Origin: Gemmatimonadota bacterium
GTDB taxonomy: Bacteria; Gemmatimonadota; Gemmatimonadetes; Palauibacterales; Palauibacteraceae
Assembly: GCA_963666735.1 (NCBI GenBank)
Contig: OY762926.1
Coordinates: 2,368,001 to 2,432,000, forward strand
Length of the DNA: 64,000 bases
Direction of reading: 5' to 3'
Position numbers and translations under genes: made by a program. Below are positions 16,970 to 64,000 of the stretch, in pieces. Under the pieces are notes generated by a model. That model was not told the DNA's origin and searched no databases. It saw only the letters and a list, made by a program, of their open reading frames with translations. Numbering within the stretch: position 1 is the first letter of the stretch; each line of letters begins with the position of its first letter.

Positions 16970-16978
16970 CCATCCCTC

Positions 16979-20730: not shown

Positions 20731-21951
20731 TCAACGGCGGCTTGGTTGCACGGAGACCAGCTCGTACACCGCCACGTTCTCCAGGTCCATGTCGTCCCTG
20801 AGCACCCCGAGGACGAGTCCTCCGGTCACATCGAGGACGCGGAACCTGGACGGAGTCTCAACCTGTCCCAGCCACTCCCCGTCCGGGGAAATAACGGCGT
20901 ACGGCGACCCTTCCTCCGGATAGCCCGGCCGGTAGGCGGGCAGCCACACGTTTCCGTCGGCGTCGGCGAAGGGGGAACCGAAGAGCGGTATCGGTTGGCC
21001 GATCATGGCGCGATACCGGGCCATGTCTTCCTGAACCATCTCCTCGAGCCGGGCTTCAGATACTCCGTAGTTCATCCGGCCGATCATTAGGTTGTAGGCC
21101 TCGACGTCCACCAGGAGTTCGTCGGTCAGCAGGTTGGGCTCGGGCCGCCAGCGCAGGATCTGGTTTACCGTGCCGTCCGGCAAACGCCAAGTGATCTCGG
21201 GCCTGTCGGACCTCGTGTAGACGAACCGCCCTGCAGCGGTCGTGACCTCGCCAACGGGCTGGATGATCGGGTTCGCCGCACCCCGCGTTGCTCGCGGCAT
21301 GTGGTCGTACGACGCGACCGTGTCCAGCGCACCGGTTTCAGTATCGAACAGGGTCATGTGCCCGCCGAGCCACTCCTCCTCTATATCGAACCATGACCGG
21401 TTGGGGTATCGGTTCCAGAGCAGCAACTCACCGGATGCACCGATCCCCGCCACACCGATGTGGGCTACCCGAGGGGTGCTCACGATGCGCGCGACCGCAT
21501 CGCCGACGAAGAGAGTGAGGCGAGACAGACGACGGTCTGGCACAAGGACGCTGTCCTGGCCCAAGACGAACGCCGAGTAGGGTTCGATCACTTCGCCCGG
21601 ACCCTCTCCAACCCTCGCGAGCACCTTGTGCGTCGTCCCCTCCGGACTCAAGACGACCACTTCGCCGTACCACTCGGCGACGACCGCGCCTCCATCCGGG
21701 AAGAGCCGGCCGGCGTCGACCGACACGAACTCGTAGTTGCCCGGGTTCGCGCCGTGCCGGTATCGCGGTTCCGCCCCCAGAGCGAAGGGCGCCTCAACCT
21801 CGGGCACTCCGGCATACTCGACGATCCGTACGCCGGCGCTGTCCCGGACCTGGACCCGAATGTCGTCGGAGAGCCCGGGGCCTCCCCCGCAGGCGGCGAG
21901 GGCCGGCGCCAAGATCGATATTGGGCTCAGCGTTGTTACGCGGCTCTTCAC
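20731..21951 (-). CDS. Beta-propeller lipoprotein (copy 2)
   Basis: LAAC lipobox, RDSAGV, GEGPGE, DDMDLENV; GTG start overlaps the upstream stop. Confidence 0.8.
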   Translation of the reverse strand: MKSRVTTLSPISILAPALAACGGGPGLSDDIRVQVRDSAGVRIVEYAGVPEVEAPFALGAEPRYRHGANPGNYEFVSVDAGRLFPDGGAVVAEWYGEVVVLSPEGTTHKVLARVGEGPGEVIEPYSAFVLGQDSVLVPDRRLSRLTLFVGDAVARIVSTPRVAHIGVAGIGASGELLLWNRYPNRSWFDIEEEWLGGHMTLFDTETGALDTVASYDHMPRATRGAANPIIQPVGEVTTAAGRFVYTRSDRPEITWRLPDGTVNQILRWRPEPNLLTDELLVDVEAYNLMIGRMNYGVSEARLEEMVQEDMARYRAMIGQPIPLFGSPFADADGNVWLPAYRPGYPEEGSPYAVISPDGEWLGQVETPSRFRVLDVTGGLVLGVLRDDMDLENVAVYELVSVQPSRR

Positions 21952-23051
21952 CGGACGAAGGGCAGGCCTGCGATGTCGTACCAGTCGAGGGCTCGATCGG
22001 GCATCCCGCCGGCATCGTCCGGCCCGGCCTGCCGGTCGACAAGCACGACCAGGGTCGACCCAAGGAGGTCGAAGGCCTGGAGCCGATCCCTGACCCGCAC
22101 CGACCCGACGTATTCGGCGTTCTCGTACACGTCCAGCCAGGACCATTCATGCTGGTCGCGCCGGGTGGCGATCCAGTAGCGGTTGGCGTCGTCGAACAAC
22201 TGCTGGCCCGTGGACAGATGGTAGTTCTTCGGGGTGGCGCGATAGTCGTCCACCTGCTCCTCGACACCCTGCGAGATGGGGAAGCCCCGCTCCCTGTTGA
22301 AGCGCCTGAGCGTCTCTTCGAACCGTGCCACGTCCCGCTCGTTCGGAAGTTCCGGGACGTACATCGGGGCGCGAAGCACCGTGGCGTCACCGGTGTCGCC
22401 GACGAAGATCAGATGCCCTTCGCAGCCCACGAACGCCCACCCCTCTCTCCGGTCCGGGATGCCATGGATGACCTGCCCGCACTCGACGCCCCACGGCCCG
22501 TGCGGCGAGCCCTCCTGCCGCACGACCGCCCCGGAGGCAAGGTCCACCTCGTACCGGGTCATCAGCGAACCGGAGCCGTCGCCCCGGAGCATCTCCATGT
22601 AGTCCAGCGACACGCCCGAGACCGCGGCGCCGAACGATGGGCCGGGCTGGAACACGCTTGGCAGCACCACGGCGGACACGTAGGCGCCCGATGGCTCGAA
22701 GACCGAGAAGCGGCCCAGGCCGGAATCGATCACGCCGACGGTTCCCGCCTCTCCGCGGGCGAGATACGCGGGATCGCCAAACTCGCCGGGGCCTTCGCCC
22801 TCGCGACCGAAGACTCCCGCGACGGCGCCGTCCCCCGCCACGCAGCGGACCCGCCCTTCGTAGGAGTCGATGACGCAGGCGGTTCGCTCGTCCGCGAGAA
22901 GCGCGAGTGAGGGATTATCGCTGAGAGGCACGGCCGTCGTATGGATCAATTCGGGCGTAAAGATGGCCTCGTCGCCGGCGTCGCCCGGACCGCATGCCCC
23001 GGCGAAGACCAGGAGCGAATAACACGCTGCGCGGACCCGGCCACTCAGCAC
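21948..23051 (-). CDS. Beta-propeller lipoprotein (copy 1, divergent)
   Basis: AGAC lipobox, GREGEGPGEF. Confidence 0.75.
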   Translation of the reverse strand: MLSGRVRAACYSLLVFAGACGPGDAGDEAIFTPELIHTTAVPLSDNPSLALLADERTACVIDSYEGRVRCVAGDGAVAGVFGREGEGPGEFGDPAYLARGEAGTVGVIDSGLGRFSVFEPSGAYVSAVVLPSVFQPGPSFGAAVSGVSLDYMEMLRGDGSGSLMTRYEVDLASGAVVRQEGSPHGPWGVECGQVIHGIPDRREGWAFVGCEGHLIFVGDTGDATVLRAPMYVPELPNERDVARFEETLRRFNRERGFPISQGVEEQVDDYRATPKNYHLSTGQQLFDDANRYWIATRRDQHEWSWLDVYENAEYVGSVRVRDRLQAFDLLGSTLVVLVDRQAGPDDAGGMPDRALDWYDIAGLPFVR

Positions 23052-46138: not shown

Positions 46139-46600
46139 TCGGCCCGCGACGCCAAAGCGGTCCGGCGGAGCTTGAGAACCACCGCCGAGCTTCCGCCTTC
46201 GGAAACTCCACGTCCTGCGCCGGACCCGAATATCCCCGGCACGTTGCCCGGATCCGGTAGGACCCCGGCGGAAGGTCCGCGAGAGAGAATCTGCCCGCAG
46301 CGTTGGTCACCGCACGGAACTCCGTATCGACCAGCACGATTCGTGCGCCCTCGATGAGTTCCGATGTCGCCCCGTTCAGGACGAGTCCGGTGATCGAAGC
46401 GGCAAACGCCTGGACGAGGAGAATAGACCATGGCGCCGCTCGTCAGTAGACCCCGCAATCCCCGCTCGCGTCACTTCCACGGAGAAACCGGCGTTGCGCT
46501 GAGTGCCGCCGTACAGCCTCCATCGGCGGCCACCCGGGTGCCTCGAGACCGACCACGACGACGAGGCCAACGGCACCGACCCCGCCACGTCACCCCAACC
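46126..46600 (-). pseudogene. Degraded 3' remnant of a paralog of the 44683-46138 gene
   Basis: FRAVTNAAGRFSL...RIRATCRG and ...ASRAECSI mirror FRAVTDRTGAFSL...RIRALCGG and ARRAQCSA across frameshifts. Confidence 0.6.
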
Positions 46601-46672
46601 ACCGGTCATAAACCCGCCTTCGGTCGGTCGACTTATGCGGCAACGCAGGACCCGGGCTTAAGCAGTCACCGA

Positions 46673-46876
46673 TCAGGAAATATCGTAATAATAATAGTAC
46701 TCATCACAACACTCGCTGCCTCCTGGACACATCACCTCGCATACGCTGAGGCAAAGGGGGCCCCCATAATTACCACATGCCTGAGCTCTCGCCGTTTGCG
46801 GCGTCGCTCCGTGCATAACACCGAGCGCAACAACGGCTGTCAATATCGACCGCAGCATCAACTTCTTCCACGTCAT
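46673..46876 (-). CDS. Secreted 6-Cys peptide precursor A1 (67 aa)
   Basis: AAGGAG RBS; signal ending ARA; mature QACGNYGGPLCLSVCEVMCPGGSECCDEYYYYYDIS. Confidence 0.85.
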   Translation of the reverse strand: MTWKKLMLRSILTAVVALGVMHGATPQTARAQACGNYGGPLCLSVCEVMCPGGSECCDEYYYYYDIS

Positions 46877-46965
46877 CGTCGACTCCTTCCCCTTTTTTCG
46901 TTTCGTCCGGACTTCCCAAACAGCGCGTTTGACAAGAACCCTTTCGCTACCTGTCCCGTGATATA

Positions 46966-48138
46966 TTATCCCTTCATCGCTTCGGCGTTTGGCCTCCACA
47001 CCTCTACACGCTCGACGCCGAAATCGTCTATCGTTTTTATCAGTAAGATCTCTGGTTCGATCTGCCATAACTTCGCTTCGACCGGGAGCGACGTTCTGCC
47101 AACCGCCCGGCCGGCCCGATCAACAACCGTCCAAGTGCGAGTCTCGTCATTGCGGAATCCAGCGTCTCCCACCCAAAGGTGTTCGCCGCTGGCGCTCCAT
47201 TGCAGCTGCGCATAAAACCGGCCCCGCTCGTTGGCGTCGTCAAGCGACTGTACGTCGCGGGCTCCATTCCACTCACCACGAGGGTGATCCGGGTCCTCCC
47301 ACGTCGCAAGCAGCTCGCCCTTCGCATCCCGAATTTCGATTGCCGGCCGGTCATTAGAACTCGTCGCAAATACTCCATCTCGCGAAGTTATCGCCGCCAC
47401 CGGACCTTCCGGCGCCGCTCGAAGCCGAAAACCCGTCGTTCCTGCGGAACTCTCCCACCACATGTCACCAACCGAAAACATCAACTCTGGATCTGCTCGC
47501 CCCCCTCCAACCCGCAGCACCCGTACGGAATCCCGTGCGATCCTCATCTCCCGCGGATCCAATCCGCTCGAAACCGCAATGAACATCTCCGAACCCGATC
47601 CCGCCCACATCTCGCTAGCTTGTTGGTGTGCGTCCGCCAGCCGAACAGACATTGATTGGTTATAGACTCCTGCTCCATCGAAAACCGATATGCGAGCTCC
47701 CAGCGCATCCAAGGCCAGAACCGAACCTCCATCACCAATCTCGATCGATCGCAGGTTTCTGAACTCTCCCGGTCCTTCACCCCCTTTACCAAACGAGTAC
47801 AGAAACTGCCCGGCGCCGGAATACACACGAATCTCGCTCGTGCCCGAATTCGCAACGAACAATGTTCCATCTTGAGTCCGGAAGCCATCTAGCGCTCGAA
47901 ACAACAGATACTCAGCCGGCCCTTCCGCTAGCCCGATCCGCATCGACGGCGCCCAAGATGTTACCGCATCAACGCGACGATCAATAGTGACAGTCGCCGG
48001 CTCAATCGTGGTCAATCTCTCCGACGTCGGTTCAGCACATGACGCAACCGCCATCGCTACGACAATGACGGTACAGCGACACATCATCGACATCCGCAGG
48101 GACGACGACGATCGGGCCAATCTTGTTAATTCATCCAT
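46966..48138 (-). CDS. Beta-propeller lipoprotein of peptide locus A (alternative start 48093)
   Basis: VASC lipobox, GEGPGEF, DDFGVERVEV. Confidence 0.8.
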   Translation of the reverse strand: MDELTRLARSSSSLRMSMMCRCTVIVVAMAVASCAEPTSERLTTIEPATVTIDRRVDAVTSWAPSMRIGLAEGPAEYLLFRALDGFRTQDGTLFVANSGTSEIRVYSGAGQFLYSFGKGGEGPGEFRNLRSIEIGDGGSVLALDALGARISVFDGAGVYNQSMSVRLADAHQQASEMWAGSGSEMFIAVSSGLDPREMRIARDSVRVLRVGGGRADPELMFSVGDMWWESSAGTTGFRLRAAPEGPVAAITSRDGVFATSSNDRPAIEIRDAKGELLATWEDPDHPRGEWNGARDVQSLDDANERGRFYAQLQWSASGEHLWVGDAGFRNDETRTWTVVDRAGRAVGRTSLPVEAKLWQIEPEILLIKTIDDFGVERVEVWRPNAEAMKG

Positions 48139-48815
48139 GCAGTTTGGCTTCCTGGCGATAGGAGTTCGCGGAGCTCCAGCAGCCCTGGCGTACCGGTAAT
48201 GAGTCGCTGATCCACCACCATCGCAGGGGTGCCGATCAGAGATAGATACTGTGCTTCGATCAAAGTCGCAGCGATGCGGGACTTGTGAACCTCGCCATTG
48301 ACGCACGCACTGAAGCGAGGCAAGTCAGGGATGTCCGCTTGCCTCGCAAGTTCGTCGATTGACACAGTGGAAAGATGATCCTGAGATGCAAGAGCAATCC
48401 GGTGGAAGGTGCTGAAGCGCCCTTGGTCGCCGGCACACTCGGCGCCAAGTGCGGCCAAATAGGCGGGGTTACCGCGTATGGGGCGAACCAAGTGGCGCAG
48501 ATTTATGGTTAATGATGTCGAATCGTCGCGGATGACCGTATCGAGATTATTCCACAGTTCTCGACAAAAGGGACACAGGTAATTTGAGTAAAGGACGACC
48601 GCGATCGGACCAGTCCCGTGGGTTTGTGCGGCAGAATTGTTGCCGTAGATCTCCTGCGCCAAATCGAACTCTATATGTTCAACTGCATAAGTGGCCTCAT
48701 TGCCGGTGCGGAAAAACCCATACCAAATGACGACCGCCGCCAGCAGGAGTACCCAAAGGATTTTCGCGATGGTATTGAGAACTGTACGGCTTAGCCGCCG
48801 TATTGAGATGGGCAC
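48126..48815 (-). CDS. Membrane-anchored DsbA-like thiol-disulfide oxidoreductase
   Basis: N-terminal TM helix, YSNYLCPFC, AECAGDQG...FSAC, GTP cis-Pro loop. Confidence 0.88.
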   Translation of the reverse strand: MPISIRRLSRTVLNTIAKILWVLLLAAVVIWYGFFRTGNEATYAVEHIEFDLAQEIYGNNSAAQTHGTGPIAVVLYSNYLCPFCRELWNNLDTVIRDDSTSLTINLRHLVRPIRGNPAYLAALGAECAGDQGRFSTFHRIALASQDHLSTVSIDELARQADIPDLPRFSACVNGEVHKSRIAATLIEAQYLSLIGTPAMVVDQRLITGTPGLLELRELLSPGSQTAWMN

Positions 48816-48909
48816 AGAACCCGCTACCGGCAGCTCGCGCTGGCTTCGTCGTACACCGATGGATCTACTCCTCGTTGAGGGGCGTGTCGGTAATGCTGGA
48901 CGTTGACAG

Positions 48910-49131
48910 TTAGTCGTCTATCTTTGGAAAGTAACTGTAATGCGACGTGCAGCACTTATCTTCGTAAGGTGGCGAGCACATCAGCAGGCACGTCTTGCGA
49001 CACATCTTACCGTCGTTGGCACCGCAAGATGCCGCTGCCGTGACGTTCTGCGCACCAAAGCCTAGGGCCACCATGGTCAGGACTGCGACAGTGAGAGTTG
49101 TGGGGATGAGGTGGCTCCACTTGATCCGCAT
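48910..49131 (-). CDS. Secreted 6-Cys peptide precursor A2 (73 aa)
   Basis: AGGAG RBS; signal peptide; SCGANDGKMCRKTCLLMCSPPYEDKCCTSHYSYFPKIDD. Confidence 0.85.
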   Translation of the reverse strand: MRIKWSHLIPTTLTVAVLTMVALGFGAQNVTAAASCGANDGKMCRKTCLLMCSPPYEDKCCTSHYSYFPKIDD

Positions 49132-49399: not shown

Positions 49400-50656
49400 G
49401 CGGGCGACGGCCTGCTGGACCGAGGCTTGGAAGTGCCTGCGCCACGGGTGGTCCGGAGCCGGCTTCGGGGGCGCGGGCCTCGGCTTCGCCGACTTGGCGG
49501 GCGCGTCGCCGGGGGAGGCGGGGGGGGCTCGGCATAAGGGTTCGAGCTCCAGGTAGCGCTCGCCGAAGCGGACCTCGCCGCCGAGGCGGCGCTCGACGAC
49601 GACCTAGTCGCCGGGGGCGATGCCGGCGGCGTCGCTCTCCGGGATCTGCCAGTGGTGGTTCCGGAACCGGACCGGGAGGTCGCGGGCCACGACGCGCCTC
49701 TCCGTCTCGGCGAAGAGCGCCTCGAGGTCCGCACCGGCCGGTAGCGGGCGGTGCGCGTCGCGGGGATCGGCGGGCTCCACGGCGAAGCGTTCGTTTCAGA
49801 ACGGGACCCAGTAGTCGGCGAGGAAGCGGTTGGCCCCCTCCAGCGTGGCGATCCCCTCCACCCGCATCTCCCTGACCAGCCGGTCCTGTGCCGTGCCGAA
49901 GCTGCGCTCGACCCGGCCCTTGGCCTGAGGCGAGCCCGCGAGGATCACCTCGACGTCCAGCTCGCCCAGTGCCCGGGCGATGATCGTGTCCGTGCGCTCC
50001 TCCTTCTTCGACAGCCACTGCCCGAAGTGTCCGGCGTGGTCGGTGTACACCGCCACCGGGCGGCCGTGGCGGCGCAGGTAGCCGATGATCGCCCGCCGGT
50101 TCTCCGCCCCGTCGTCGCGCGCCGCGAAGCGGGCCATGAGCAGCCGGCTCGTCGCGTCGTCGTGGATCGAGATCAGCGTCTGGCTCCCCGGCAACCTCTC
50201 CTCCAGCCACGGATGCACCGAGCTGTCCCACTGCCCCGGCTCGCCCAGCGCCGCCCGCCTCGGACGCCGGCGGCGGTGCTTCGCGCGCTTGCGGCGACGC
50301 TCCCACAGCCCGGCCTCCAGCATCCAGCACCGCAGCGTCTCCGCGCTCAGACGCAGCCCGAAGCGTCTTTCCAGGTGTTCCGCAAGCAGCGTCGGCCCGA
50401 AGTCCCGGTACAGCGGATCCCTCGCAACCTCCAGCGCCCGCTCCCGATCTTCCGCGCGCAGCGCCCGGTTCGACCGCCGTCCCCGCAGGCCGTGTACCGC
50501 CGCCGCATCGCCCTCCGCCTCGAACCTCCGGCGCAACCGGCGAAAATGCCGCCGAGTCACGCCGATCCGCTCCGCTCCCGCAGCGACCGTCAGCACTCCC
50601 TCGCTCACCTGTCTCAGCACCGAGATGCGATCCCGCTCCCTCAGACTCAGGTCCAT
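49400..50656 (-). pseudogene. IS1202/ISNCY-type DDE transposase with premature stops (3' end approximate)
   Basis: HTH, QWDSSVHPW, DDATS, YTDH, SPQAKGRVER; in-frame TGA at 49796 and TAG at 49604. Confidence 0.85.
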
Positions 50657-50720
50657 CCGCTCCCCTCCCGGATCCCGTTCCGCCGTTGACCGAACATGGA
50701 CCGTAAGAGGACATTTCTAC

Positions 50721-52457
50721 CTCGGATCCTGCGTTGGTGCATAATCGGACGGCCGGAGGCGCGATTATGACCTGCGGCTGTGGCGATTTGGCGCGGGTGG
50801 TGGCGTTTTCGGGGCCGGACCGGGCCTCGGTGGGGGGCCGGCGGGGTTCGGGAGGGACCCCGGGCGGCGCGCGGAGACACGGGAACGGGGCGCCGCCGCG
50901 CGGCGCCTTCGCAAGGCCGGGTCCGGGGTCGGTCAGGCGGGCGCGGGCGGCGGGAGGCCGTTCTCGATGGTGCGGAGCGCCCGCCGCGGGAGGCCGAGGG
51001 CCGACTCGCCGCGCGCGAACCCGAGCGAGGTTCGGCGGGCGTGGGAGGTGATCCTGGCCGGGGCGCGCAGCAGGCGCAGCCGGATGCCGCGCGGCTGCGC
51101 GGTGCCCCAGCGGCCGCCGAGGCAGTTCGCGCGCAGGATGTGGAGGAGTTGGTAGGCGAGCGCGGCGAGGCCCCACAGGAGGGCGTTGCCGCCGAGGTCG
51201 TCGACCGCGGTGCGCCCGGCCGAGAGCGGGCCCAGCTCCTCGATCCGCTGTTCGACGACCGCGCCCGCGTTGTAGGCGCGCCACGCGTCGACGGGGCCGA
51301 CGCCCTCGATGTTGGTGAGAACGTCGGCGCTCATCGCGGTCTCCCACGCCGCGAGGTCGAGCTCCCCCTCCTCCGGCCCGATCCGTCTCCGCCTCTCGAC
51401 CGAGAGAAGCCGCGTCCCCCACAGCTCGCCGGAGGCGGTCCTCAACTCCCGGTCCCCGGCCCCGTCGGCGGCGGCCGTCTCCCAGGCGCCCCGGAAGCCG
51501 TCGAGCCAGCCGTGCCGCGGCACCTTGAGCAGATAGGAGACGCCGAGCTCCTCCATGCTCGCCGCGATGCGCTTGGAGAAGAACCCCTTGTCCAGCCGCA
51601 CGGTGATGTCCCGCACCCCCGCCTCCCTCAGGCGGGCCACCAGCCCGGCCAGCCACGCCTCGGCTCCCCCGGCCGTGTGCGCGTTGCCCGGCCGCCAGCG
51701 CACCCCGAGGCAGTCGCCCGTCTCCAGGACGTAGGCCAGCAGCGGATGGTGCGAGGGACGGCCCGGCTTCTTCGGATTGTAGCCCTTCTCCGCCCCGGCC
51801 TGTCTCAGCCCGTAGCGCACCACCACGGTCGAGTCCATGACGACCGTCGCCGACCGGGGCGCCCCGCCCGCCATCTCCCAGCGCCGCCGCACCATCCGCC
51901 ACGGCAGCTCGTCCAGAAGCGGCGACAGCACGGCCGCCGAGCGCCGCAGCCAGCGCCCGAACGTGGCCGGGTGCGGCACCCGCCTCCAGCCGAAGATGCG
52001 GCGTACCCCCCGCCGCTCGAGAAACGGCAGGTCGTCCATCACCCCGCCGCCGTACAGGAGCAGCGCCACCCACAACTCGACCATCAGCGACGGCCGGTAG
52101 CGGCCGGGGACGTTCCCGGTCCGGTCGTCGATCCAACGGCCCAGCCCCAGCGCGTCCCACAGCCTCCGGACCACGACCAGGCCGCCCGCGTCGGTGATCC
52201 GTACGCCGCCGCCGCGGACCCCCGGCGCCGCCGCCGATCCTTGCACGTGCGGGCGCGATCCGGTATAGTCGTTTCCGCGCACCATTCGGGTGTCCTCCGT
52301 TCCGGGGTGAACTCTTGTCCAGTCCCTCTGAACGTAGGGCCCCGGGCGGTGCGTTTCCATAGTCCGACACTATGCTCTCACTATCGTCAAGGCTTCCGCG
52401 GCCCGGCTACGGCCGCCCTCCCGGACGAGCCCCGCGCCAACGATCGCAGGATCCGGG
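50721..52457 (-). mobile_element. IS1380-type element with transposase ORF 50933-52360
   Basis: Terminal IR CTCGGATCCTGCG / CGCAGGATCCGGG (12/13); DSTV, GYNPKK...HPLLA, RPGNAHT, RLDKGF, YN...VEQRIEE. Confidence 0.8.
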
Positions 52458-52486: not shown

Positions 52487-52537
52487 TGTCGTCGCTATTC
52501 AACTTAGTTTGTCTCGCCAATTCCGTGGAGAATGCAG

Positions 52538-52765
52538 ATGAACAAGGTCGCCTTCCGTTGGAATCGCCTGCTTCAGCTCTTGGGCCTGCTCCTGATCGCC
52601 GTGTTGTCAGTTGGCCCCGAAGCCGCGCGAGCTCAAGAAGCAGGCGACGACGACTGCTTTCAGTTATACGGTTGCGAAGTCTGTCCCGCTCAAGACCCGG
52701 ACTGCATCACATATGTCTGCCCGGTCGGTGACCCCAGGGGTGTGGGGATCCTCTGCATAGGATGA
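52538..52765 (+). CDS. Secreted 6-Cys peptide precursor B (75 aa)
   Basis: GGAG RBS; signal ending ARA; mature QEAGDDDCFQLYGCEVCPAQDPDCITYVCPVGDPRGVGILCIG; ATGA overlap with the next gene. Confidence 0.85.
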   Translation: MNKVAFRWNRLLQLLGLLLIAVLSVGPEAARAQEAGDDDCFQLYGCEVCPAQDPDCITYVCPVGDPRGVGILCIG

Positions 52766-54561
52766 CTGCTGGATCGCGCAGTCCAGGGGATAAAGGGGAT
52801 GGTCGGTGGAACCGGGTCGTCAACATTGCGATCTTGGGAGTGCTCGCCATCCTGCTGTTCAATCCGTCGGGTGTGGTGGGAAGCTGGATCATCGCAGAGT
52901 ACAAAGAATGGCAGGAGCAGCGGCGAATCGCCCTGAACTGGCCGGAGTTGACAAGCGCATCGAGTTATCTTGGTCCGTCGCCTCTACAGGATGGTGCCGT
53001 CATAGTGGAGTTTGTGGACTATGACTGTCCCGCTTGTAAGGCGGTGGCTCCCGATGTCCTGGAGGGTGCTCGCGGCCGCGGCGTTACGGTGATTATGCGC
53101 CACGTCCCCTCTGAACGCGGTGGTCCGGCTGCAACGGAAGCGGCTCTCGCGGCGATCTGCGCAGAGCAGTACGGTCTGTTCCCGGAGGCGCATGGCGCGC
53201 TGATCTCGGAGGAGATGTGGCTGGAGACTCGAGATTGGGCGGGCTTCGCCGTCAACTTGGGAATTGGCGACCCAGAGTCGTTCGGCAATTGTGTGAGCGA
53301 GGAAGAAGCACCGCGGCGCCGTCTCGCCCGCGACGTGGAGTTGGCGGAAGTTCTGCGGATTCCCGGGACGCCGACCTTTGTCTCAGCCGAAGAGTTGCAC
53401 TTGGGGGCGCCGGGACTGGCGTCGGCGTTGGCCGCGGCTGCCCCGACGCGGCAGCACGCCCCGCGTCGTCCCTCGACCGACCCGGTCTTCGATTCGTCGG
53501 AGCACGGGGATCTTTCCGAGCGGCTGCTGTCCGTCAGAGCTGGCTTCTTCACGCCGGACGGTGGTCTCGTTGTGGTGGACCGCACCGAGATCCACATCAT
53601 CGACATGGCGTCCGGGGAGCATCGAGTGGTGGGGCGCAAGGGAGGGGGGCCGGAGGAATTCAGCCACATATCGCGGGCGGTTCGCACGTCGGAGGGTGTC
53701 GCCGTTAGCGACTACCTCAGACGTCGTATCGTGTCGATTGGGCGCGATGGCGGTTTTGGCCACTCCCAAAGCTACTCGGATGTTCCGCTCAACAGCCTTC
53801 AACCGCAGCTGGTAGCCCGTCATCCAGACGGCAGCACGGTCTTCCGCGACGTCGCGCCGCGCGTGCGGCAATCCGAGGGTCGATACTGGCGGCCAGCTCG
53901 GTACGTGGCGGTGGATGCCGACGGCGGACTTCGGGTGGTCGCGGAGACACCAGGCAACGAACGGTACTCCGACACGAGAGACAACAGTCCCGTGTTGTTT
54001 GGTCACCGGACATTGGAAGCGGCGACCGCAGACCGTCTCGTCGTCGCCGAAACTGACCGGGGATCCATCTCGGTACTCGACTGGAGCGGCGTGCCGGTCG
54101 CCGGTATTCCGATGCCGGCCAGCGTTAGGCTGTCCGCGGACCAGGTGCGGATGGGGCGAGAGTCCGCGGCGTCGCAGCGGCGGCAGGAAAGGGGGTGGCT
54201 CGTGGAAGCCGCGTTGGACGGCAGGTTCCCGTTCCCGCCGTCGGCCGTAGAGGAGCGACTCCTCTCCTTTTCGCCGGACTGGCCGGCAAACGAAGTGGCG
54301 CCCCCGATCGATGCGATGCTGACGGACTTCGATTCGAGACTCTGGGTGAGAGATTATCGGCTTCCCGGCCAGGATAGCGTAACGTGGCGAGTGTGGGACA
54401 TCGACCGGGAGCGGCTGCTGTTCACGGCGAGCATGGATGGTGAGGACACGTTGCTCGACGCGCGAGGCGACGTAGTGCTGCTGCGCCGATTGGATCCATT
54501 CGACGCTCACCAGGTTGTGGTTACTCCGCTTGGCCCCGAGCAGGCCAATGGGGGGACTTAG
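52762..54561 (+). CDS. DsbA-like domain fused to a beta-propeller
   Basis: TM helix, EFVDYDCPAC, AICAEQ...FGNC, PGTPTF; then GGGPEEF and a C-terminal DPFDAHQV propeller motif. Confidence 0.85.
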   Translation: MTAGSRSPGDKGDGRWNRVVNIAILGVLAILLFNPSGVVGSWIIAEYKEWQEQRRIALNWPELTSASSYLGPSPLQDGAVIVEFVDYDCPACKAVAPDVLEGARGRGVTVIMRHVPSERGGPAATEAALAAICAEQYGLFPEAHGALISEEMWLETRDWAGFAVNLGIGDPESFGNCVSEEEAPRRRLARDVELAEVLRIPGTPTFVSAEELHLGAPGLASALAAAAPTRQHAPRRPSTDPVFDSSEHGDLSERLLSVRAGFFTPDGGLVVVDRTEIHIIDMASGEHRVVGRKGGGPEEFSHISRAVRTSEGVAVSDYLRRRIVSIGRDGGFGHSQSYSDVPLNSLQPQLVARHPDGSTVFRDVAPRVRQSEGRYWRPARYVAVDADGGLRVVAETPGNERYSDTRDNSPVLFGHRTLEAATADRLVVAETDRGSISVLDWSGVPVAGIPMPASVRLSADQVRMGRESAASQRRQERGWLVEAALDGRFPFPPSAVEERLLSFSPDWPANEVAPPIDAMLTDFDSRLWVRDYRLPGQDSVTWRVWDIDRERLLFTASMDGEDTLLDARGDVVLLRRLDPFDAHQVVVTPLGPEQANGGT

Positions 54562-54569: not shown

Positions 54570-56813
54570 TTAGATCACCTGGAACGTCACCCACTGGGAG
54601 ACCCAAACTGCAGTCAGCTCATCGCTGTTGCTCGCGGGCCGGAAGCGCATCTGCTCGACGACTTCCGCGGCGGCGCGGTCCAGCGCCTCGTTGCCGCTGC
54701 TCGTCTTCACTCTGTGGTTGACAACGGCACCCGACAGGTCGACGTAGAGCCACATCTCGACCCGGCCACCAATGCCCGCTTGCTTCAGGTCGCTCGGATA
54801 AGCTCTCTCGATCGCCTGCTGTATCTCGCCCCCATTCTGAAGAGCCGGGGGCGTGTCGTACCCGACGAAGGTCGGCTGGTCCGCCGGGGCATCGCTGTCT
54901 GCGGCGCCGCCCTTGGTCGTGATTGCAACCACGCCATTCCTGGCACGCTCACCGTACATCTCGACAGCCCGCTCGCCCTTGACGACGTCGACATGGTCGA
55001 TATCGAGAGCCTGGAGGTCTGCCAAGCTCGTGCCCTCGGATAGCATGACTCCGTCGACGATGATGAGCGGCGCCTCGTCCATTGCCGGCGTGACGAAAAT
55101 ATCCGGGGCCCCATCCTGGTCGAAATCCGCGATCAAGTTCTCACTCTCGTGGTCCGTGCTGTCCATCGCGCCGGTCTTGGTCGTGATTTCGACCACGCCA
55201 TTCCTGGCGCGCTCGCCGTACAGATCGACCGCCCGCTCGCCCTTGACGATCTCGACGTGGCCGATGTCGAGGGCCTGTATGTCTCCCAGGCTCGCGCCCT
55301 CGGATAGCATGACTCCGTCGACGATGATCAACGGATTCAGCGCCTGTCGGACCGTTGGGTGCAGCCACAGATCCGCATCGTCCCCGTCAACGGGCCGGCC
55401 GTTGAGAAGGATGTCGCGCAACTCCAAGGGTTCCTCGGTCTGAGGAGGACCGCCGTCAACTGGGATCATGTCCCCAACCTCGAAGGTGACCCACTGGGAG
55501 ACCCAGACGTCGGTCGGCTGGTCACGGTTCATCGCGGGCTCGAAGCGCATCGTCGCGACCACATCGGCGGCGGCGGCGTCCAGAGCATCGTGGCCGCTGC
55601 TCATCTTGAGTTCGGAGTTCCGGACCACCCCGGACGCGTCGAGGTACAGCCACACTTCGACTCGGCCGCCGATTCCCGCCGTCATGAGGTCCCGCGGGTA
55701 GGCGTCCTGGAGGGCTAGCATCACAGCCCCGGCGTTCTGCAGAACCGGCGGCCTGTCGTACGCGATGAAGGACGGCCGGTCACCGCGCGCCATGACCTCC
55801 TCGCCGGGCACCAGCGGAGGCGCCCATTCGCTGGATTCGGACGGCGGTGTCACCGTCGCGGCGGGCGGTTCCGGCGCGTTCACGGAAGTCTCGGGTCCGG
55901 GGCAGCCGAGCACGAAGAGGACGGCGACCATGACCACCCCCGAAGCCCCCAGCGTTCGGAGCGGACGCATGCTGGCCGCCGGCTCGGTCATGCGGCGCAG
56001 GCGTCGTTCCACGGCCGGCTTGCGTTCGGCGAAGGCGGCGGCCGCGAGCAGCGGGCCGGAGACGCGGCTGCCCACGGTGAGGAGGGCGTCCGCGTAGTCG
56101 CGCGGCGACTCCCCCCGCCGGAGCACGCGACGGTCGCAGTCGAACTCGATCGCGAGCCGCAGCCGGGACAGCTGCCACCACACGAGCAGGTTCCAGGGCA
56201 TCAGCACGAGGGCGGTGACCGCCGCGGCGAAGAGCCGATGGTCGCCGGCGCGCTGATGCTCCCGCTCGTGGAGAAAGACGAGGCGGAGCAGCCTGTCCTC
56301 GAGTTCGGGGATCCACTTCGGCATCACGACGATCGAGCGGCGGATGCCGACGACGGCCGGTCCCCGCTCGTCGGAGATCATGACCGGCGATCCCGCGACG
56401 CGGCCCGGCGTCCATGTCCGCATCTCCGACCGCAGCCGACCGTAGATCCGGCCCAGGTAGCCGACCATGGCGACGGCCAGGAGCACCCAGCCCCACCCCA
56501 GCACCGTGCCGACGGCCGCCCCATCGAAACCCCCACCGGCCTCCGCGGCCATCGCGGGCAGTTCCGGCGCCGCGGCGACGATCGCCGGACCGCTCAACCC
56601 GACCGCCGGCGCGGCGGACGACACCCCGAAGCCGGGGAGGAGTCCGGGAGCGAGGAAGGCGACGACGGGCACCGTCACGGATCCGGCGACCGCCGCGAAC
56701 CACGCCCAGCGCACGGGCTTGCGGAAGTGGCCCAGCGCCCGCTCCGAGGCGAGGGCGGCCAGGGCGAGGAGTCCCGAAATCAACAGGCAGTATCCGATCC
56801 AGGCGATGACCAT
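54570..56813 (-). CDS. BlaR1/M56 peptidase fused to TonB-C and plug-like domains
   Basis: HEREH, AIEFDCD; two TonB-C repeats (YP..GIGGRVE.W); two PLIIVDGV...NGVV.ITTK repeats. Confidence 0.88.
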   Translation of the reverse strand: MVIAWIGYCLLISGLLALAALASERALGHFRKPVRWAWFAAVAGSVTVPVVAFLAPGLLPGFGVSSAAPAVGLSGPAIVAAAPELPAMAAEAGGGFDGAAVGTVLGWGWVLLAVAMVGYLGRIYGRLRSEMRTWTPGRVAGSPVMISDERGPAVVGIRRSIVVMPKWIPELEDRLLRLVFLHEREHQRAGDHRLFAAAVTALVLMPWNLLVWWQLSRLRLAIEFDCDRRVLRRGESPRDYADALLTVGSRVSGPLLAAAAFAERKPAVERRLRRMTEPAASMRPLRTLGASGVVMVAVLFVLGCPGPETSVNAPEPPAATVTPPSESSEWAPPLVPGEEVMARGDRPSFIAYDRPPVLQNAGAVMLALQDAYPRDLMTAGIGGRVEVWLYLDASGVVRNSELKMSSGHDALDAAAADVVATMRFEPAMNRDQPTDVWVSQWVTFEVGDMIPVDGGPPQTEEPLELRDILLNGRPVDGDDADLWLHPTVRQALNPLIIVDGVMLSEGASLGDIQALDIGHVEIVKGERAVDLYGERARNGVVEITTKTGAMDSTDHESENLIADFDQDGAPDIFVTPAMDEAPLIIVDGVMLSEGTSLADLQALDIDHVDVVKGERAVEMYGERARNGVVAITTKGGAADSDAPADQPTFVGYDTPPALQNGGEIQQAIERAYPSDLKQAGIGGRVEMWLYVDLSGAVVNHRVKTSSGNEALDRAAAEVVEQMRFRPASNSDELTAVWVSQWVTFQVI

Positions 56814-56817
56814 GTCC

Positions 56818-57189
56818 CTACTCCTTCGAGCTGAGGCGTTCGTCCACCAGGCCGCGCAGGTTCTCGAGGTCCTCCTTCGAGAGCGCCCGGTCGGAGACGA
56901 GATGCGTGAGCAGCAGTTCCGGCGACCCCTGGAACATCTTCTGAACCAGCCGGCGCACCGCGCTCGCCCCGGCGCATTCCCGCCCGACGAGCGTGTGATA
57001 GCGGTAGGCCTTCCCCTCCTGGGTGTGCCCCACGTACCCCTTCTCCTCCAGCGTCCGGAGGATCGTGAGCACGGTCGTGTAGGCCAACTCATCGCCGAGG
57101 CGGTCCTGCACCTCCGCCACGGTCGAGGCCCCTCTCTCCCAGAGCACCGCCATGAGGTCGAGTTCCCGAGTCGTGAACTTGATCTCCAC
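56818..57189 (-). CDS. BlaI/MecI/CopY family repressor
   Basis: RELDLMAVLW, LAYTTVLTILRTLEEKGYV. Confidence 0.93.
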   Translation of the reverse strand: MEIKFTTRELDLMAVLWERGASTVAEVQDRLGDELAYTTVLTILRTLEEKGYVGHTQEGKAYRYHTLVGRECAGASAVRRLVQKMFQGSPELLLTHLVSDRALSKEDLENLRGLVDERLSSKE

Positions 57190-57381
57190 GAGACCCGTCC
57201 TTTCGTCCCGAACCGTCAGCGTCGCCACCCGCGGCGGCCGGCCGTCGTCGAAGCGGCGGCGGGCCGAGCTGCGGCGTCGTTCCCGAGTGAGCGTAAACGC
57301 GCCGGGGCGCCGCTGTCAACTAGGTACGTAGTAGAAACGTCCGAAGGACCCCGATCGGGACATGGGGCGGGACGCGCGGGT

Positions 57382-60300
57382 TTACGCGCGCAACCAGTTG
57401 TGTGCGAAACGCACGAACCAGGAGGCGCCGGCGGACCGCAGGAAGCCGCAGGCCTCGCGTTGATCGCCGGGCCGGTTGGGTGGGGAGTACGTGCCGGCCA
57501 GCACTCTCAGCTTCTCGGCGCTCAGCCTGTCCAGCTCGGCTGTATGATCCGCGGCTTCGATGAGACCGTCGACCGTGGCCCGGCGGTCGCGAGTCCCCAT
57601 CGCCGCGGCGCGAAACCAATTCACCAGGTAGAGGTCGTTCTCCCCCACCCCATCGGAACCATCCCCTATCCGTTCGAGGCAGGCCTCCACCTCGCTCTGA
57701 TTGTCATCGGTCATCGCCAGCAGGCCGGTGAGTGCTTGCGCCTGCGCTCCGAACGGATGTTGACCCATGTGCCCGGGACACCGGAGCAGCCGCTCCATGT
57801 ACCGTCGACAAAGAGCGTAGTCCCCCTTGAAGAAGACGCACTCTGCCTGATTCAGCAGGGCGCAGGCTCGGGCTTCGGGTGGACTCTCGAGCGCCTCGTC
57901 CATCTTGCGGCAGCGACCGAGTTCATCGAGCGCCCGCTCGAAGTTGCCGAGTTCCAGCAGCACCGCGCCCAGGTTGTTGAGGTTCACCGACTCGTGGCGG
58001 TTCCCGTTGAGGATCCCGGAGGCATCTTCGAGCAGCCGGAGGGCATCGTGGAGACGCGCGCCTCGCATCGCCACCCAGAACTCGGCGGCAGTGGCGGCCC
58101 TGAAGCCCTCGTAGCCGAGCCAGTTGAGCTTGTGGCGGCAAGTCTCGAGCACCAGGCGAGCCTCCGTGAGACCGCTTTGACCTCCGACCTGCTGGAAGAG
58201 GAGCCGAAATGCATCGCACCAGACGCCCGCGTGGCGGGCATCCTCCTGGACGATCCCTCGGAGATGCGTGCGGATCCTCTCGACACCGGGCTTCCCGGTC
58301 CGCCGGAGCGTAGCATCCGTTGCCTCGAGTACGACCATCTGCACGGTCAGCGCGCGGATGAGCGCCGGGTCGGTCGCGTGCCCGCGAGCCTCCTTCAGAT
58401 TCCGTCGGTGCAGACCCGTCGCGAGTCGGTCTCCCGACGCCACCGCCGCCCGCGCCAGCGCCAATTGGACGCGGCTCAGGTCGTTCCCGGTGTCCGCGAC
58501 AGCGGCAATCTGGTGCAGCACGCCCGCGGCCCGTCGAAACCGGCCTCGCTGAAACTCGGCTTCCGACAGGAGGAAGCCGGAGCGCAGACGCTCGGCTCCG
58601 GCCGTGGCATGCTCGAACGCCAATGCCGCCGCCCGACCCGCGACCGGCGATCGGCCTTCCCGCAAAGCCCGCTTCGCCACCTTGCAGGCCAGACCGAAAG
58701 CACGGGAGGACTCTCCGGCCGCGGCCAGTTCGGAGGCGGCCGCCGCACGCGCGCCGAGACCAGCGTTCTCAAGGGCTCGAGCCGCTGCCAGGTGCACCTT
58801 CGTTCTCTCGTCCGGCTGCAGATTCCACGCGAGCACGGCACCGGCCAGCGGACGGCTCAGCGTCCATTGGTCGGTCTCGGAGTGTAACCAGCCCTTGGCC
58901 CGGAGCCCTTCAAGAGCCTCCCCGCTCGAATGTCCGGCCACGATCACATCGCCGTGGGCGCGCGCCGCGCGCGTGAGCAGCGCCAACGTCGTCGCCAGCC
59001 GTCCTTCACGGCGCGAGAGCGCGGCCAGTTGATCGCCGACGAGCGACCGAACCTCGGCGGACCGCTCATACGCCAATCGTCCGCCCGATTCCCGGTCGCT
59101 GGCTGTCGCAGGGCTGAAGTTGTGGCGCATCCACGCCCTGAGGATCGCCCGAGCCAGAGCCGGATTGCCTCCGGAGAGCCTCGCGCTCTCGACCGCCTGG
59201 TGAGGACCGCAGCCCGTCTCGGTCGCCGCAAGCGACACCGCGCACGCTTCGGTGGTGAGTGGATCGAAGTTGATTACGAAGTCCACCAGACGGGCGGCTT
59301 CCGCCTGCCGAGCCACGTCCGGGTCCGAGAAACCGACGACCATGGCGCCTGATGGATCTGCTGGATCTGCGGTCCGCATGACCTCCTCCACGGCGGCCCA
59401 ATCCCGAACATCGGCTCTGATCACGATGAGCCGCGTCTTTCGGGGGTAGCGGCGCAACTCCGAGGCCAGCTTCTCTCGCGTCCCTGCCAGGTCCGGCGGA
59501 AGCCACTGCACCAGCCCTCCACCGCCGCATACGAGCGCGGCGAAGTTCCGCACGACGTTTTCCCTCCCGGAACCGCGCTCGCCGGCCAGGACCAACCGTA
59601 CGGGCGCGGCGCCGGATGCACGGCGAGCGACCCTCAGTTGGCGGAACTCTCCTCCTCGATCCGACATCCGCGGTTCGTGGCGCTCGCGGACGACCGGAGG
59701 CGCGGCGTCCAGCTGGCTTCGAGCCCACGCCGCCGTTTCCGTCAGCTTCGTGGCGCTGGCGACCCATCCGCATTTCTCCAGTGCTCCGTAGTATGCAAGG
59801 GCGGAGGCGTAGTCGCCCTTCATGCCCAATGCACGCATGAGAGTGCTGTGCGCGTGCTCGTCGAACTCGTTTTGCCTCACGAGCCGGAGCGCGGCCAGAC
59901 ACGTCCGGTCCCAGTCGCCGCTCTCCTCGGCGGCTTGCTGTACGTTCTTGAGCGCCATGGCGACCAGAACGCGGCAACGCTCCCGTTCGCCGTCCAGCCA
60001 GCGCTCGAACTCGTCGGCTCCCAGGTTGAGCAGGCCGGTGGCGAAGTCTCCCCGGCACAGATCGATGACGGTCTCGTGATCCCCGTCCTCGAACGCCCGT
60101 TCGAAAGCATCGAGTTCGTACGTAACCCGCCGCGGTATGAGCCGGACCGTGTTGACGTCCACCGTGATCACCGGACCCATGGACGACCGGATGTCGTATA
60201 GTGCCTGGCTGAGCGAATGTCGCGCCTTCTTGTCGCGGCTGTCCCAGAGCAGATCGGCGAGCGTCTCCCGCATGTGAACGGCGCGGGGGTGCGCAACGAG

Positions 60301-60399
60301 ATAGAGCAGGAGGCCCATGTGCTTCCTTGACCGCAGCGAGATTCTTGCCCCCCGTGCGTCCGAGGCCGTGACCTCGCCGAAGCAGCGCAGCGTGAACAT
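57382..60399 (-). CDS. SARP/BTAD transcriptional regulator with degenerate NTPase and TPR regions
   Basis: LLLYL...RETLADLLW...ARHSLSQALY, FERWLDGERE, DEHAHSTLMRAL; GERGSGR; LNNLG TPR. Confidence 0.8.
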   Translation of the reverse strand: MFTLRCFGEVTASDARGARISLRSRKHMGLLLYLVAHPRAVHMRETLADLLWDSRDKKARHSLSQALYDIRSSMGPVITVDVNTVRLIPRRVTYELDAFERAFEDGDHETVIDLCRGDFATGLLNLGADEFERWLDGERERCRVLVAMALKNVQQAAEESGDWDRTCLAALRLVRQNEFDEHAHSTLMRALGMKGDYASALAYYGALEKCGWVASATKLTETAAWARSQLDAAPPVVRERHEPRMSDRGGEFRQLRVARRASGAAPVRLVLAGERGSGRENVVRNFAALVCGGGGLVQWLPPDLAGTREKLASELRRYPRKTRLIVIRADVRDWAAVEEVMRTADPADPSGAMVVGFSDPDVARQAEAARLVDFVINFDPLTTEACAVSLAATETGCGPHQAVESARLSGGNPALARAILRAWMRHNFSPATASDRESGGRLAYERSAEVRSLVGDQLAALSRREGRLATTLALLTRAARAHGDVIVAGHSSGEALEGLRAKGWLHSETDQWTLSRPLAGAVLAWNLQPDERTKVHLAAARALENAGLGARAAAASELAAAGESSRAFGLACKVAKRALREGRSPVAGRAAALAFEHATAGAERLRSGFLLSEAEFQRGRFRRAAGVLHQIAAVADTGNDLSRVQLALARAAVASGDRLATGLHRRNLKEARGHATDPALIRALTVQMVVLEATDATLRRTGKPGVERIRTHLRGIVQEDARHAGVWCDAFRLLFQQVGGQSGLTEARLVLETCRHKLNWLGYEGFRAATAAEFWVAMRGARLHDALRLLEDASGILNGNRHESVNLNNLGAVLLELGNFERALDELGRCRKMDEALESPPEARACALLNQAECVFFKGDYALCRRYMERLLRCPGHMGQHPFGAQAQALTGLLAMTDDNQSEVEACLERIGDGSDGVGENDLYLVNWFRAAAMGTRDRRATVDGLIEAADHTAELDRLSAEKLRVLAGTYSPPNRPGDQREACGFLRSAGASWFVRFAHNWLRA

Positions 60400-62843: not shown

Positions 62844-63080
62844 ATGAGTGTGAGAACCAAGCTGTCGTTTCTTGGAGTTGTTCTCGCGGCGCTACTCTGG
62901 GGCGGAGGCGTCGTTGCAGGTCAAATTCGGGCACCGGTGGCCGAGCTGGATCGGACAGATGACGCGGCTAGACCGCTATGCTGTGCACTGGCACATCGGC
63001 CAGATTGTTGCACGGTCGCGATCAGATGCCTGCCGGGCGACACGTGCTGCACGTGTGGGTCTCCTTGCCGTCCAGGCTAG
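62844..63080 (+). CDS. Secreted 9-Cys peptide precursor C (78 aa)
   Basis: AGGAGG RBS; signal peptide; ...PLCCALAHRPDCCTVAIRCLPGDTCCTCGSPCRPG. Confidence 0.75.
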   Translation: MSVRTKLSFLGVVLAALLWGGGVVAGQIRAPVAELDRTDDAARPLCCALAHRPDCCTVAIRCLPGDTCCTCGSPCRPG

Positions 63081-64000
63081 TCGCGCTAACCGCCTGCGCC
63101 TTCCTTGCCGGAGGCGCCGTCGCAGTAGCGGGCTGCGACCCCGGCGGCCGTGGCGAATGGGCGGGAACGGAGTACGACAGCGTCGGCGTCAGGGTCGTGG
63201 CCAATCCCCTGGTTGCCCTCTGGACCCGAAGCACTGCCTGGCGCGTCGAGCGCGACCTCACAATTGGGACGGACACTGGTCTGCCGGAATACGAGTTCGG
63301 TCGGGTTGTGGATGTGGATGTGGGTCGCGATGGGATGATCTACGCGCTGGACCAGATGTCAGCTCAGGTGCGGGTCTTTGATTCAAGGGGTGAACATCTC
63401 TTCTCCTTTGGCGGCTTGGGGGAAGGCCCTGGGGAACTGAGCAATCACGACCCGCTCGGTGCCCTGGCGGTGCTTGCCGATTCCGGGGGCGACTTGCTCG
63501 TCGTTGATCGCGTAAACAACCGACTGAATCGGTTCACGGGCGATGGCGAGTTTCTGGGATATGTGGACTTGGGTGTCCAGAGCGGCGAGGTCGAGCCCAT
63601 CGCTTCGGGGATCCTGCCGAATGGCGACTATCTCGTGCATCGCGTGGTCCGCGATCGGTGGAACGGAATCCTGCGGGTCGACCCACATGAAGGTCCAACC
63701 CTGGACACGCTATTGGCGTTCTCCCTCCAGCCGAGTGCGTGGGGACTCACACGGAGGAACGAGCAGGGACGCACGGAGGCCCTCATGCACTCACCGCTTT
63801 GGTCGATATTACCGGACGGCCGGCTGGTAGCCGGACGATCCGATCAGTCGTCCTTTCAGGTGTGGGGACCCGGCAAGCGGCTGAAAATGGTGGTAAGGAG
63901 ACATGAGCCCAACCCCATTCTCTCCGAATCGGGCCAGGAACGCTATCTGGATCGCCTGATGGAGATCTGGGAGACGATGTTCAGAGACGAGGGGGAGTCG
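63065..64000 (+). CDS. Beta-propeller lipoprotein of locus C (runs off window; start 63026-63065)
   Basis: Translated by hand: VAGC lipobox, YDSVGV, TIGTDTGLPEYEFGRV, FGGLGEGPGEL. Confidence 0.8.
   Translation, partial: MPSRLVALTACAFLAGGAVAVAGCDPGGRGEWAGTEYDSVGVRVVANPLVALWTRSTAWRVERDLTIGTDTGLPEYEFGRVVDVDVGRDGMIYALDQMSAQVRVFDSRGEHLFSFGGLGEGPGELSNHDPLGALAVLADSGGDLLVVDRVNNRLNRFTGDGEFLGYVDLGVQSGEVEPIASGILPNGDYLVHRVVRDRWNGILRVDPHEGPTLDTLLAFSLQPSAWGLTRRNEQGRTEALMHSPLWSILPDGRLVAGRSDQSSFQVWGPGKRLKMVVRRHEPNPILSESGQERYLDRLMEIWETMFRDEGES

Follow-up and report, generated by a model that had tools for sequence, protein, structure and literature searches.

Disulfide-rich peptide families are, to our knowledge, few in bacteria compared with animals and plants. 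Among the described systems closest to the one studied here, sublancin-type bacteriocin clusters have a dedicated thiol-disulfide oxidoreductase (BdbA/BdbB), and the small NVEALA proteins of Bacteroidota (PF14055), a term for which the literature searched yielded no paper, sit beside DUF5128/TolB-like six-bladed propeller lipoproteins. Herein, we analysed a window of 64,000 nucleotides (positions 2,368,001 to 2,432,000 of contig OY762926.1) from the 3.98-Mb, 94% complete genome of a sponge-associated Gemmatimonadota bacterium of the Palauibacteraceae (G000). It holds a cassette in which two small six-cysteine peptides, A1 and A2, bracket the genes of a DsbA-type thioredoxin-fold protein and an NHL-type propeller lipoprotein. 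We read the cassette, with a probability of about 0.5 for the whole model, as a module whose peptides would be exported by the Sec route, oxidised by housekeeping enzymes, shuffled or held by the cassette thioredoxin and bound by the propeller, for antagonism or signalling between cells.

The locus resembles each of these systems in part. As in sublancin-type clusters, a secreted peptide, here with predicted disulfides, has its own oxidoreductase gene; however, the 95 of 192 neighbouring open reading frames (ORFs) that were scanned showed no double-glycine leader, no ABC exporter and no modifying enzyme, and an NHL propeller lipoprotein is present instead. As in the NVEALA loci, a small exported Cys-containing protein adjoins a DUF5128-type propeller, whereas PF14055 (E up to 0.1) matched none of 65 members of the peptide family. 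Among characterised proteins that combine thioredoxin and NHL parts, NHLRC2 is the nearest; in it, a thioredoxin-like domain accompanies a six-bladed NHL propeller and a cleft is proposed to bind a partner (excerpts of PMC6107167). The likeness to NHLRC2 and SOQ1 lies in domain make-up, thioredoxin fold and NHL propeller together, and is mirrored in a gene fusion elsewhere in the window. Unlike them, the cassette usually has two genes, both with envelope-anchored products, a DsbA-type or single-Cys thioredoxin and an adjacent candidate client peptide.

A family of secreted six- and four-cysteine peptides

A1 (67 amino acids) has the core CGNYGGPLCLSVCEVMCPGGSECC, spaced C-x7-C-x3-C-x3-C-x5-CC, and the tail DEYYYYYDIS, whereas A2 (73 amino acids) has the core CGANDGKMCRKTCLLMCSPPYEDKCC, spaced C-x7-C-x3-C-x3-C-x7-CC, and the tail TSHYSYFPKIDD. 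Common to both are CG, a loop-1 Gly (position 5), MC, a last loop that contains Pro, and an aromatic tail. Each N-terminus is a basic and hydrophobic export signal ending in A-x-A, and a purine-rich stretch lies 5' of each ATG. When the six frames of the genome were searched with the strict cysteine pattern, A1 and A2 were the only two matches, and each of 10 shuffles gave none. The six-Cys framework described by a first-pass annotation of the window is thus borne out, as is its statement that the two peptides bracket one DsbA-propeller pair: the genes run A2, DsbA-type, propeller, A1 on one strand, and the middle two match Thioredoxin_4 (E 9.7e-11) and DSBA (E 7.1e-10), and DUF5128 (PF17170; E 4.6e-7), respectively, all above the cut-off.

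The same cassette occurred in 2 of 35 other genomes of the genus, G003 and G017, the latter with a third peptide copy. For the wider family, a profile of 8 sequences was run against 1.84 billion 50%-identity representatives (E up to 0.001), and 72 proteins matched, corresponding to ~70 clusters at 50% identity; one of them, the 581-amino-acid repeat protein P0048, was dropped as a false match. Weak same-genus matches covering the signal region only (e.g. L106) belonged to another peptide family. Altogether 74 family proteins were collected, 72 of which could be parsed and serve as the denominator of the counts of sequence features. The signature is CG-x3-G-x2-C…C-x3-Y-x-Y, with the CG-x3-G-x2-C start in 64/72 members and C-x3-aromatic-x-aromatic in 59/72. 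Forty members are six-Cys peptides, and the remainder are mostly four-Cys (C-x7-C-x5-C-x8/9-C). Homologues that keep the framework therefore exist, both as orthologues in the genus and as a family. A conserved scaffold with diverged loops, as first proposed from A1 and A2, holds family-wide, but the details of the pair do not all carry over: a last loop of 5-7 residues was found in 12/72 members and MC with a Pro loop in 4/72. In several loci of one genus (L092, L093, L105, L107, L111 and kin), four-Cys peptides have a Gly-rich linker and a C-terminal second two-Cys motif, C-x-W-G-x-D-Y-x-G-W-x-P-R-x-C.

Each Pfam or NCBIfam model matched at most 2 of 65 members, and any such match was weak. 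A 65-row family profile found matches in 55/401 genomes of the class, a few being signal-only matches to other peptides, and in none of 121 genomes of another phylum (that of G941) or 4 other non-Gemmatimonadota genomes, both small samples; members with a placed origin come from Gemmatimonadota only. A database-scale DNA-pattern scan, which required TGC as the first codon, gave at least 121 stretches. Among the matches listed, true members came only from 3 Gemmatimonadota genomes, and the others were mainly low-complexity shadow frames and Planctomycete PCC-rich proteins. At database scale, Cys spacing alone is not diagnostic. An unrelated secreted Planctomycete family of ~430-460 amino acids, with CG-x3-G-CGC…CC and PCC repeats, was seen at L136, L141, L170, L176, L208 and L212. 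Literature searches, with subscription journals and supplements outside their coverage, returned no description of the family or the cassette, and the main text of a Palauibacterales paper (PMC10469786) has no mention of propeller, cysteine, bacteriocin, RiPP or NHL. The family is apparently undescribed.

AlphaFold2, run on a 41-row alignment, predicted the mature part of A1 as a beta-hairpin (residues 41-49 and 56-63; block pLDDT 88-93, pTM 0.43). Foldseek with the full-length A1 model gave no matches, and the best VIA Z score was 2.7, in rows dominated by the signal helix. A PDB sequence search with the six-Cys profile gave nothing below E 6, and the ESM Atlas returned three unnamed clusters at 0.78-0.80, below the bar, with no usable match for mature A1. 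In the model, A1 and A2 would be paralogous precursors of disulfide-stapled beta-hairpin mini-proteins.

Cysteine pairing, selection and charge

An even number of cysteines is found in 71/72 family cores. In P0025, P0027, P0069 and the peptides of L099, L242 and L243, about four lineages, C4 and C6 were lost jointly and the other four kept. This joint loss suggests a C4-C6 bond, and C1-C2 with C3-C5 would be the simplest completion of the bonding. The first-pass annotation had asked whether the cysteines might be reduced metal ligands instead. Even numbers, paired loss, the export signal and the thioredoxin-fold neighbour together favour disulfides, and the family cysteines are probably disulfide-bonded. 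The locus of a three-Cys member (L097) carries, upstream of that peptide and its propeller, a fusion of a zf-HC2 anti-sigma-like protein with a redoxin domain (8456-10666).

A metal-binding or redox-buffer peptide, whose cysteines a thioredoxin-fold neighbour keeps reduced, is very improbable. Six cysteines within ~25 residues and an acidic bias would suit such a peptide, single-Cys thioredoxins could reduce rather than shuffle, and DsbD-type proteins are present; yet, besides the parity and the paired loss, only 8/72 members contain more than one His, metal transporters do not recur among the ORFs scanned, and Sec export would deliver the peptide into a compartment that has a DsbA-VKOR system. 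In G000, VKOR lies beside a separate DsbA-like gene and there are two DsbD-type matches; DsbB (PF02600) was not found in this 94% complete genome. The genome is thus equipped for general oxidation and reduction, and the cassette enzyme comes in addition.

The ratio of nonsynonymous to synonymous substitution rates (dN/dS) was obtained from one orthologue pair of short sequences (G000 and G003), comparisons with G017 being largely saturated. The values were 0.21 for mature A1, 0.17 for the A1 signal, 0.20 for A2 overall, 0.19 for the DsbA-type gene and 0.24 for the propeller. In this pair, these genes are under purifying selection, and the toxin-type hypervariability at first ascribed to the loops is not seen. 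Among the sequencing runs listed as containing this DNA were sponge metagenomes and no RNA run. Four DNA sequencing runs aligned to the cassette had 4 variant positions, one of them in A1 (L43V), too few for a selection test.

Beta-defensins are defined by Cx4-7Cx3-4Cx9-10Cx5-6CC with bonds C1-C5/C2-C4/C3-C6, and cis-defensins by CxC (excerpts of PMC9138766). That A1 and A2 are defensin- or toxin-like membrane-active antimicrobials with hypervariable loops, the principal proposal of the first-pass annotation, is very unlikely. Like beta-defensins they are secreted with a signal peptide and have six cysteines in the order C-C-C-C-CC with a vicinal CC end, three of the four spacings lying in the avian beta-defensin range (same excerpts); they are also duplicated, and the NCBIfam actinodefensin model matched 2/65 members weakly (best E 0.002). 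However, the C3-C4 spacing is 3 in both peptides and 3-4 in all 40 six-Cys members, against 9-10 in beta-defensins, and C4 and C6, the cysteines lost together, are no beta-defensin pair. The family has four-Cys members, an aromatic strand after CC and dN/dS near 0.2, and it is not cationic: net charge is 0 or below in 60/72 members and +3 or more in 1/72. The predicted A1 hairpin is two-stranded and runs beyond CC, whereas beta-defensins have a three-stranded antiparallel sheet, a comparison to be read with fold searches dominated by the signal helix. With respect to the CS-alpha-beta type (cis- and actinodefensins), the family has CC and never CxC, and its CxxxC, which lies on an alpha-helix in that fold, is on a predicted strand in one model.

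The charge contrast between A1 and A2 was also re-examined. From C1 to C6 the net charge is -2 in A1 and +1 in A2 (from C1 to the end, -5 and 0). The acidic-to-basic change of sign noted earlier is therefore real in the G000 cores, but it is small and absent from G017, where both are acidic (A1-type -1, A2-type -2); G003 has -3 and +1. An obligate two-component peptide acting through opposite charges, suggested on that basis, is highly improbable. Both types are retained around the same gene pair in all three cassette genomes of the genus, as two components would be, and the charges of G000 and G003 agree with it, although the contrast is only 3-4 charges. Two-component bacteriocins have two peptide genes always together; here, besides the acidic G017 pair, single-peptide cassettes are frequent, and six six-Cys loci whose flanks reach 3.6 kb or more on both sides have one peptide only (L074, L075, L077, L078, L240 and L241). 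The number of peptide copies per locus ranges from 1 to 4.

Thioredoxin-fold and propeller partners

We examined 68 loci and dropped 8 (1 duplicate, 1 without flanks, 1 three-Cys, 4 with broken or doubtful peptides and 1 of another family); 14 six-Cys and 46 four-Cys loci remained for counting. A membrane-anchored thioredoxin-fold gene is present in 57/60 loci, and a same-strand propeller no more than 2.6 kb away in 54/60 (14/14 six-Cys and 40/46 four-Cys, some misses falling at contig ends). Comparison across genomes thus yields a constant gene trio, in which the kind of thioredoxin differs with the peptide class. DsbA-type partners accompany 11/14 six-Cys loci (one broken) but 0/46 four-Cys loci, whereas single-Cys thioredoxin-like partners are found in 43/46 four-Cys and 4/14 six-Cys loci. 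Counted by genus, the DsbA-type split is 5/6 versus 0/18 (Fisher p 1.4e-4, an overstated value, since relatives do not count as independent and one genus falls on both sides). The idea that four-Cys peptides need no redox partner was dropped once the single-Cys ORF, which is blank in Pfam, was found there.

The DsbA-type protein of the window has both active-site cysteines (CPFC). The single-Cys partner is a membrane-anchored protein of 170-200 amino acids with no Pfam match in the ORFs scanned; it has an invariant Cys in an x-x-D-C motif and a T-P motif, and its profile finds thioredoxin-fold chains of known structure (3lor, E 6e-4; 3gl3, E 3e-3). In an alignment with the cassette orthologues, three DsbA-type partners, all of one genus, had CxxS sites (CPFS, CPFS and CRFS). 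CxxS isomerases shuffle or hold their clients and do not oxidise them, according to parts of a review (PMC12384036). A Thr before the cis-Pro, which excerpts of PMC2665069 describe as common in DsbC/DsbG, is present in the window's DsbA-type protein. Since most of its relatives have only one active-site Cys, the cassette thioredoxin would not be the main oxidase, and the single-Cys partner suggests disulfide shuffling or holding for the four-Cys peptides. Holdase-type CxxS isomerases such as ERp44 and AGR2 are similar by motif only, with a thioredoxin fold and one active-site Cys (L078 has CRFS, as does ERp44), and differ in that the cassette proteins are bacterial, membrane-anchored and beside a single candidate client, the window copy having CPFC. 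At L236 (1640-2068) and L237 (197-802), an ORF between the six-Cys peptide and the propeller resembles the single-Cys family but lacks the D-C motif, which is present in a copy farther downstream.

The propeller lipoprotein was modelled with a pLDDT of 91.5, and the top Foldseek matches of the predicted fold were NHL domains (E 9e-14). A long hairpin protrudes from the model at residues 188-211. In an alignment of 37 homologues, the invariant residues were only G, G, G, E and D of the NHL-type motif, and no family-wide catalytic residues were seen. A tree of 81 sequences, with every second full-length propeller of the own genome as background, placed the 9 propellers of DsbA-type cassettes in one clade (0.93) and 27 from single-Cys cassettes in another (0.87). 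Polar invariants, e.g. R61, N77, E82, R182 and D183, are kept in the DsbA-linked clade and mostly absent from the other. At L240, a six-Cys peptide has a single-Cys partner and a propeller of the four-Cys/single-Cys clade; thioredoxin and propeller thus appear to travel together, with the peptide class swappable. Support for joint action of DsbA-type and propeller domains also comes from the fusion gene at 52762-54561, 3.6 kb from the cassette. Three A1-propeller complex predictions gave 0.03, 0.71 and 0.02 against a mark of 0.32 on the median and were not used either way.

Other six-bladed propellers are modifying enzymes, e.g. amidating lyases and lactonases. The propeller could accordingly act on the conserved Tyr-rich strand in a pathway like those of ribosomally synthesised and post-translationally modified peptides (RiPPs), as the layout of a precursor plus two proteins, the co-travel and single fusion of thioredoxin and propeller, and the polar residues of the DsbA-linked clade would allow. 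We consider this distinctly unlikely, given that invariance across the 37 propellers is confined to the NHL-type motif with the clade residues mostly unshared, that the best structural matches are NHL binding domains and not enzymes, and that the peptides carry ordinary Sec signals and no leader peptides. In contrast to the radical-SAM Cys-rich RiPPs (SCIFF/ranthipeptide), no radical SAM maturase was found in the window cassette or among the ORFs scanned; the SCIFF model TIGR04117 matched 1/65 members (E 0.006), and the family peptides carry Sec-type signals where those RiPPs have a cytoplasmic leader.

The G000 genome has 97 propeller ORFs, and 5/7 of its DsbA-like genes adjoin one. A small signal-plus-Cys ORF lies within 1.2 kb of 23/97 propellers, a few of these ORFs being likely shadow frames, compared with a mean of 5.5 and a maximum of 13 in 1000 random draws. 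The other 74 are without such a peptide nearby, some of them in tandem arrays, as expected of orphan immunity or receptor genes. One tight tandem array of seven propeller genes lies in the window (14504-23051, minus strand); none was found with an adjoining small Cys-rich peptide, and at E 1e-5 Pfam matched nothing in the array. Propeller genes of G000 also have as neighbours about 15-20 further small secreted peptides, rich in Cys and built on several unrelated frameworks, among them three paralogues ending in C-x-Y-x-D-x-H-Y-Y (C1:353667, 515918 and 2744426). At the end of the window (62844-64000, plus strand), a secreted nine-Cys peptide is directly 5' of a propeller.

These data also bear on whether the peptide is a structural subunit that stays with its producer, capping or completing the propeller or polymerising through its Tyr-rich strand into a structure at the surface or in the periplasm with an adhesin-like part in host contact, with the thioredoxin-fold protein as chaperone. 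Purifying selection on the peptide equals that on its partner genes, charges are neutral or acidic, no exporter was seen among the ORFs scanned, the aromatic strand is conserved and the predicted hairpin at 188-211 could pair with a strand. We nevertheless judge this reading unlikely, as a locus may have anything from 1 to 4 peptide copies, 74 of the 97 G000 propellers have no such peptide nearby and peptides of unrelated Cys-rich types adjoin other propellers in that genome.

Genomic setting and proposed mechanism

The features of the cassette and its surroundings are listed in Table 1. The low GC, the flanking transposases and the presence in only two of the other same-genus genomes argue for mobility of the cassette. 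Promoter and terminator scans of the cassette were at chance level (1 versus 1.4 and 1 versus 2.5, respectively). Decaying copies, in which DsbA-type and propeller genes are frameshifted or peptides are interrupted, were seen at L075, L102, L103 and L104 and are consistent with frequent gain and loss. Upstream of the cassette are genes for a BTAD-type regulator, a BlaI repressor and an M56-TonB fusion (54570-60399, minus strand), and in G003 the orthologous cassette has M56-like genes immediately upstream of it (L020:1284-9217); a regulatory link between such neighbours and the cassette is possible.

Table 1. Coordinates of the cassette and nearby features (positions in the window)
Feature	Position	Strand	Details
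Peptide A2 precursor	48910..49131	-	Sec-type signal (~residues 1-33), six-Cys predicted hairpin core, aromatic tail; orthologues in G003, G017
DsbA-type thioredoxin-fold protein, membrane-anchored	48126..48815	-	CPFC active site, G-T-P cis-proline loop; Thioredoxin_4, DSBA
Six-bladed NHL-type beta-propeller lipoprotein (predicted fold)	46966..48093	-	Lipobox VASC; start codon inferred; DUF5128 (PF17170)
Peptide A1 precursor	46673..46876	-	Sec-type signal (~residues 1-31), six-Cys predicted hairpin core, Tyr-rich tail
Low-GC stretch over cassette	46500..49000		GC 0.52-0.59 versus genome 0.685
Two transposase genes, directly upstream of cassette (context, not core)	49796..52360	-	Pfam HTH/rve_3, DDE_Tnp_1_4
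Second, separate module	52532..54561	+	Unrelated six-Cys secreted peptide (52532-52765), then DsbA-propeller fusion gene (52762-54561, CPAC)

The mechanism that we infer for the three-gene module of client peptide, membrane-anchored thioredoxin-fold protein and NHL propeller lipoprotein is as follows. Sec export and signal cleavage would free a peptide of 36-40 residues into the periplasm, where the housekeeping DsbA-VKOR pair would oxidise it. The cassette thioredoxin-fold protein would then correct or hold its disulfides via a transient mixed disulfide, and the propeller would bind the folded hairpin as a receptor, carrier or self-protection protein. A1 and A2 would act independently, sharing this machinery, and the module would serve cell-to-cell interaction. 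Within the model we lean slightly towards target-specific antagonism with the propeller as immunity, and give signalling with the propeller as receptor a little less than even weight.

Several observations weigh against this model. Purifying selection is not what an arms race predicts, and a Sec-exported peptide would still have to cross the outer membrane, although no dedicated exporter was seen among the ORFs scanned. P0016 has five cysteines and the L097 peptide three, and the partner-like ORFs adjoining the peptides of L236 and L237 have no recognisable active-site Cys motif. The Thr before the cis-Pro also occurs in the oxidising DsbA of Staphylococcus aureus (excerpts of PMC2665069), and the three CxxS partners have Val there. 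As L240 illustrates, the thioredoxin type is a better guide to the propeller clade than the peptide class is. Finally, the loci were selected via search matches, many of them from close relatives (one genus supplies 11 genomes).

A more far-reaching version is tentative, and we hold it to be doubtful at present. It posits a separate bacterial route for disulfide-rich mini-proteins, in which a thioredoxin anchored in the inner membrane, single-Cys or DsbA-type, would capture the peptide by a mixed disulfide and pass it to a cognate propeller for display, sensing or protection, the ~97 propellers forming a receptor or immunity repertoire against the peptides of neighbours. We know of no ERp44-like holdase step in bacteria.

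New here is a predicted hairpin family that falls into two Cys classes and shows natural loss of a Cys pair. New, too, are the single-Cys thioredoxin partner, the split of partners by peptide class, and the evidence against hypervariability and two-component action. The family provides ~70 natural variants of a 30-40-residue predicted hairpin scaffold in which most positions other than Cys can vary and which comes in natural versions with two and three predicted disulfides. It also offers a candidate client for two uncharacterised groups, the DUF5128-type propeller lipoproteins, with 97 ORFs in this genome, and the Pfam-blank single-Cys thioredoxin family. Because all three parts of the module are small and expressible in a laboratory host, the role of the propeller expansions is directly testable.

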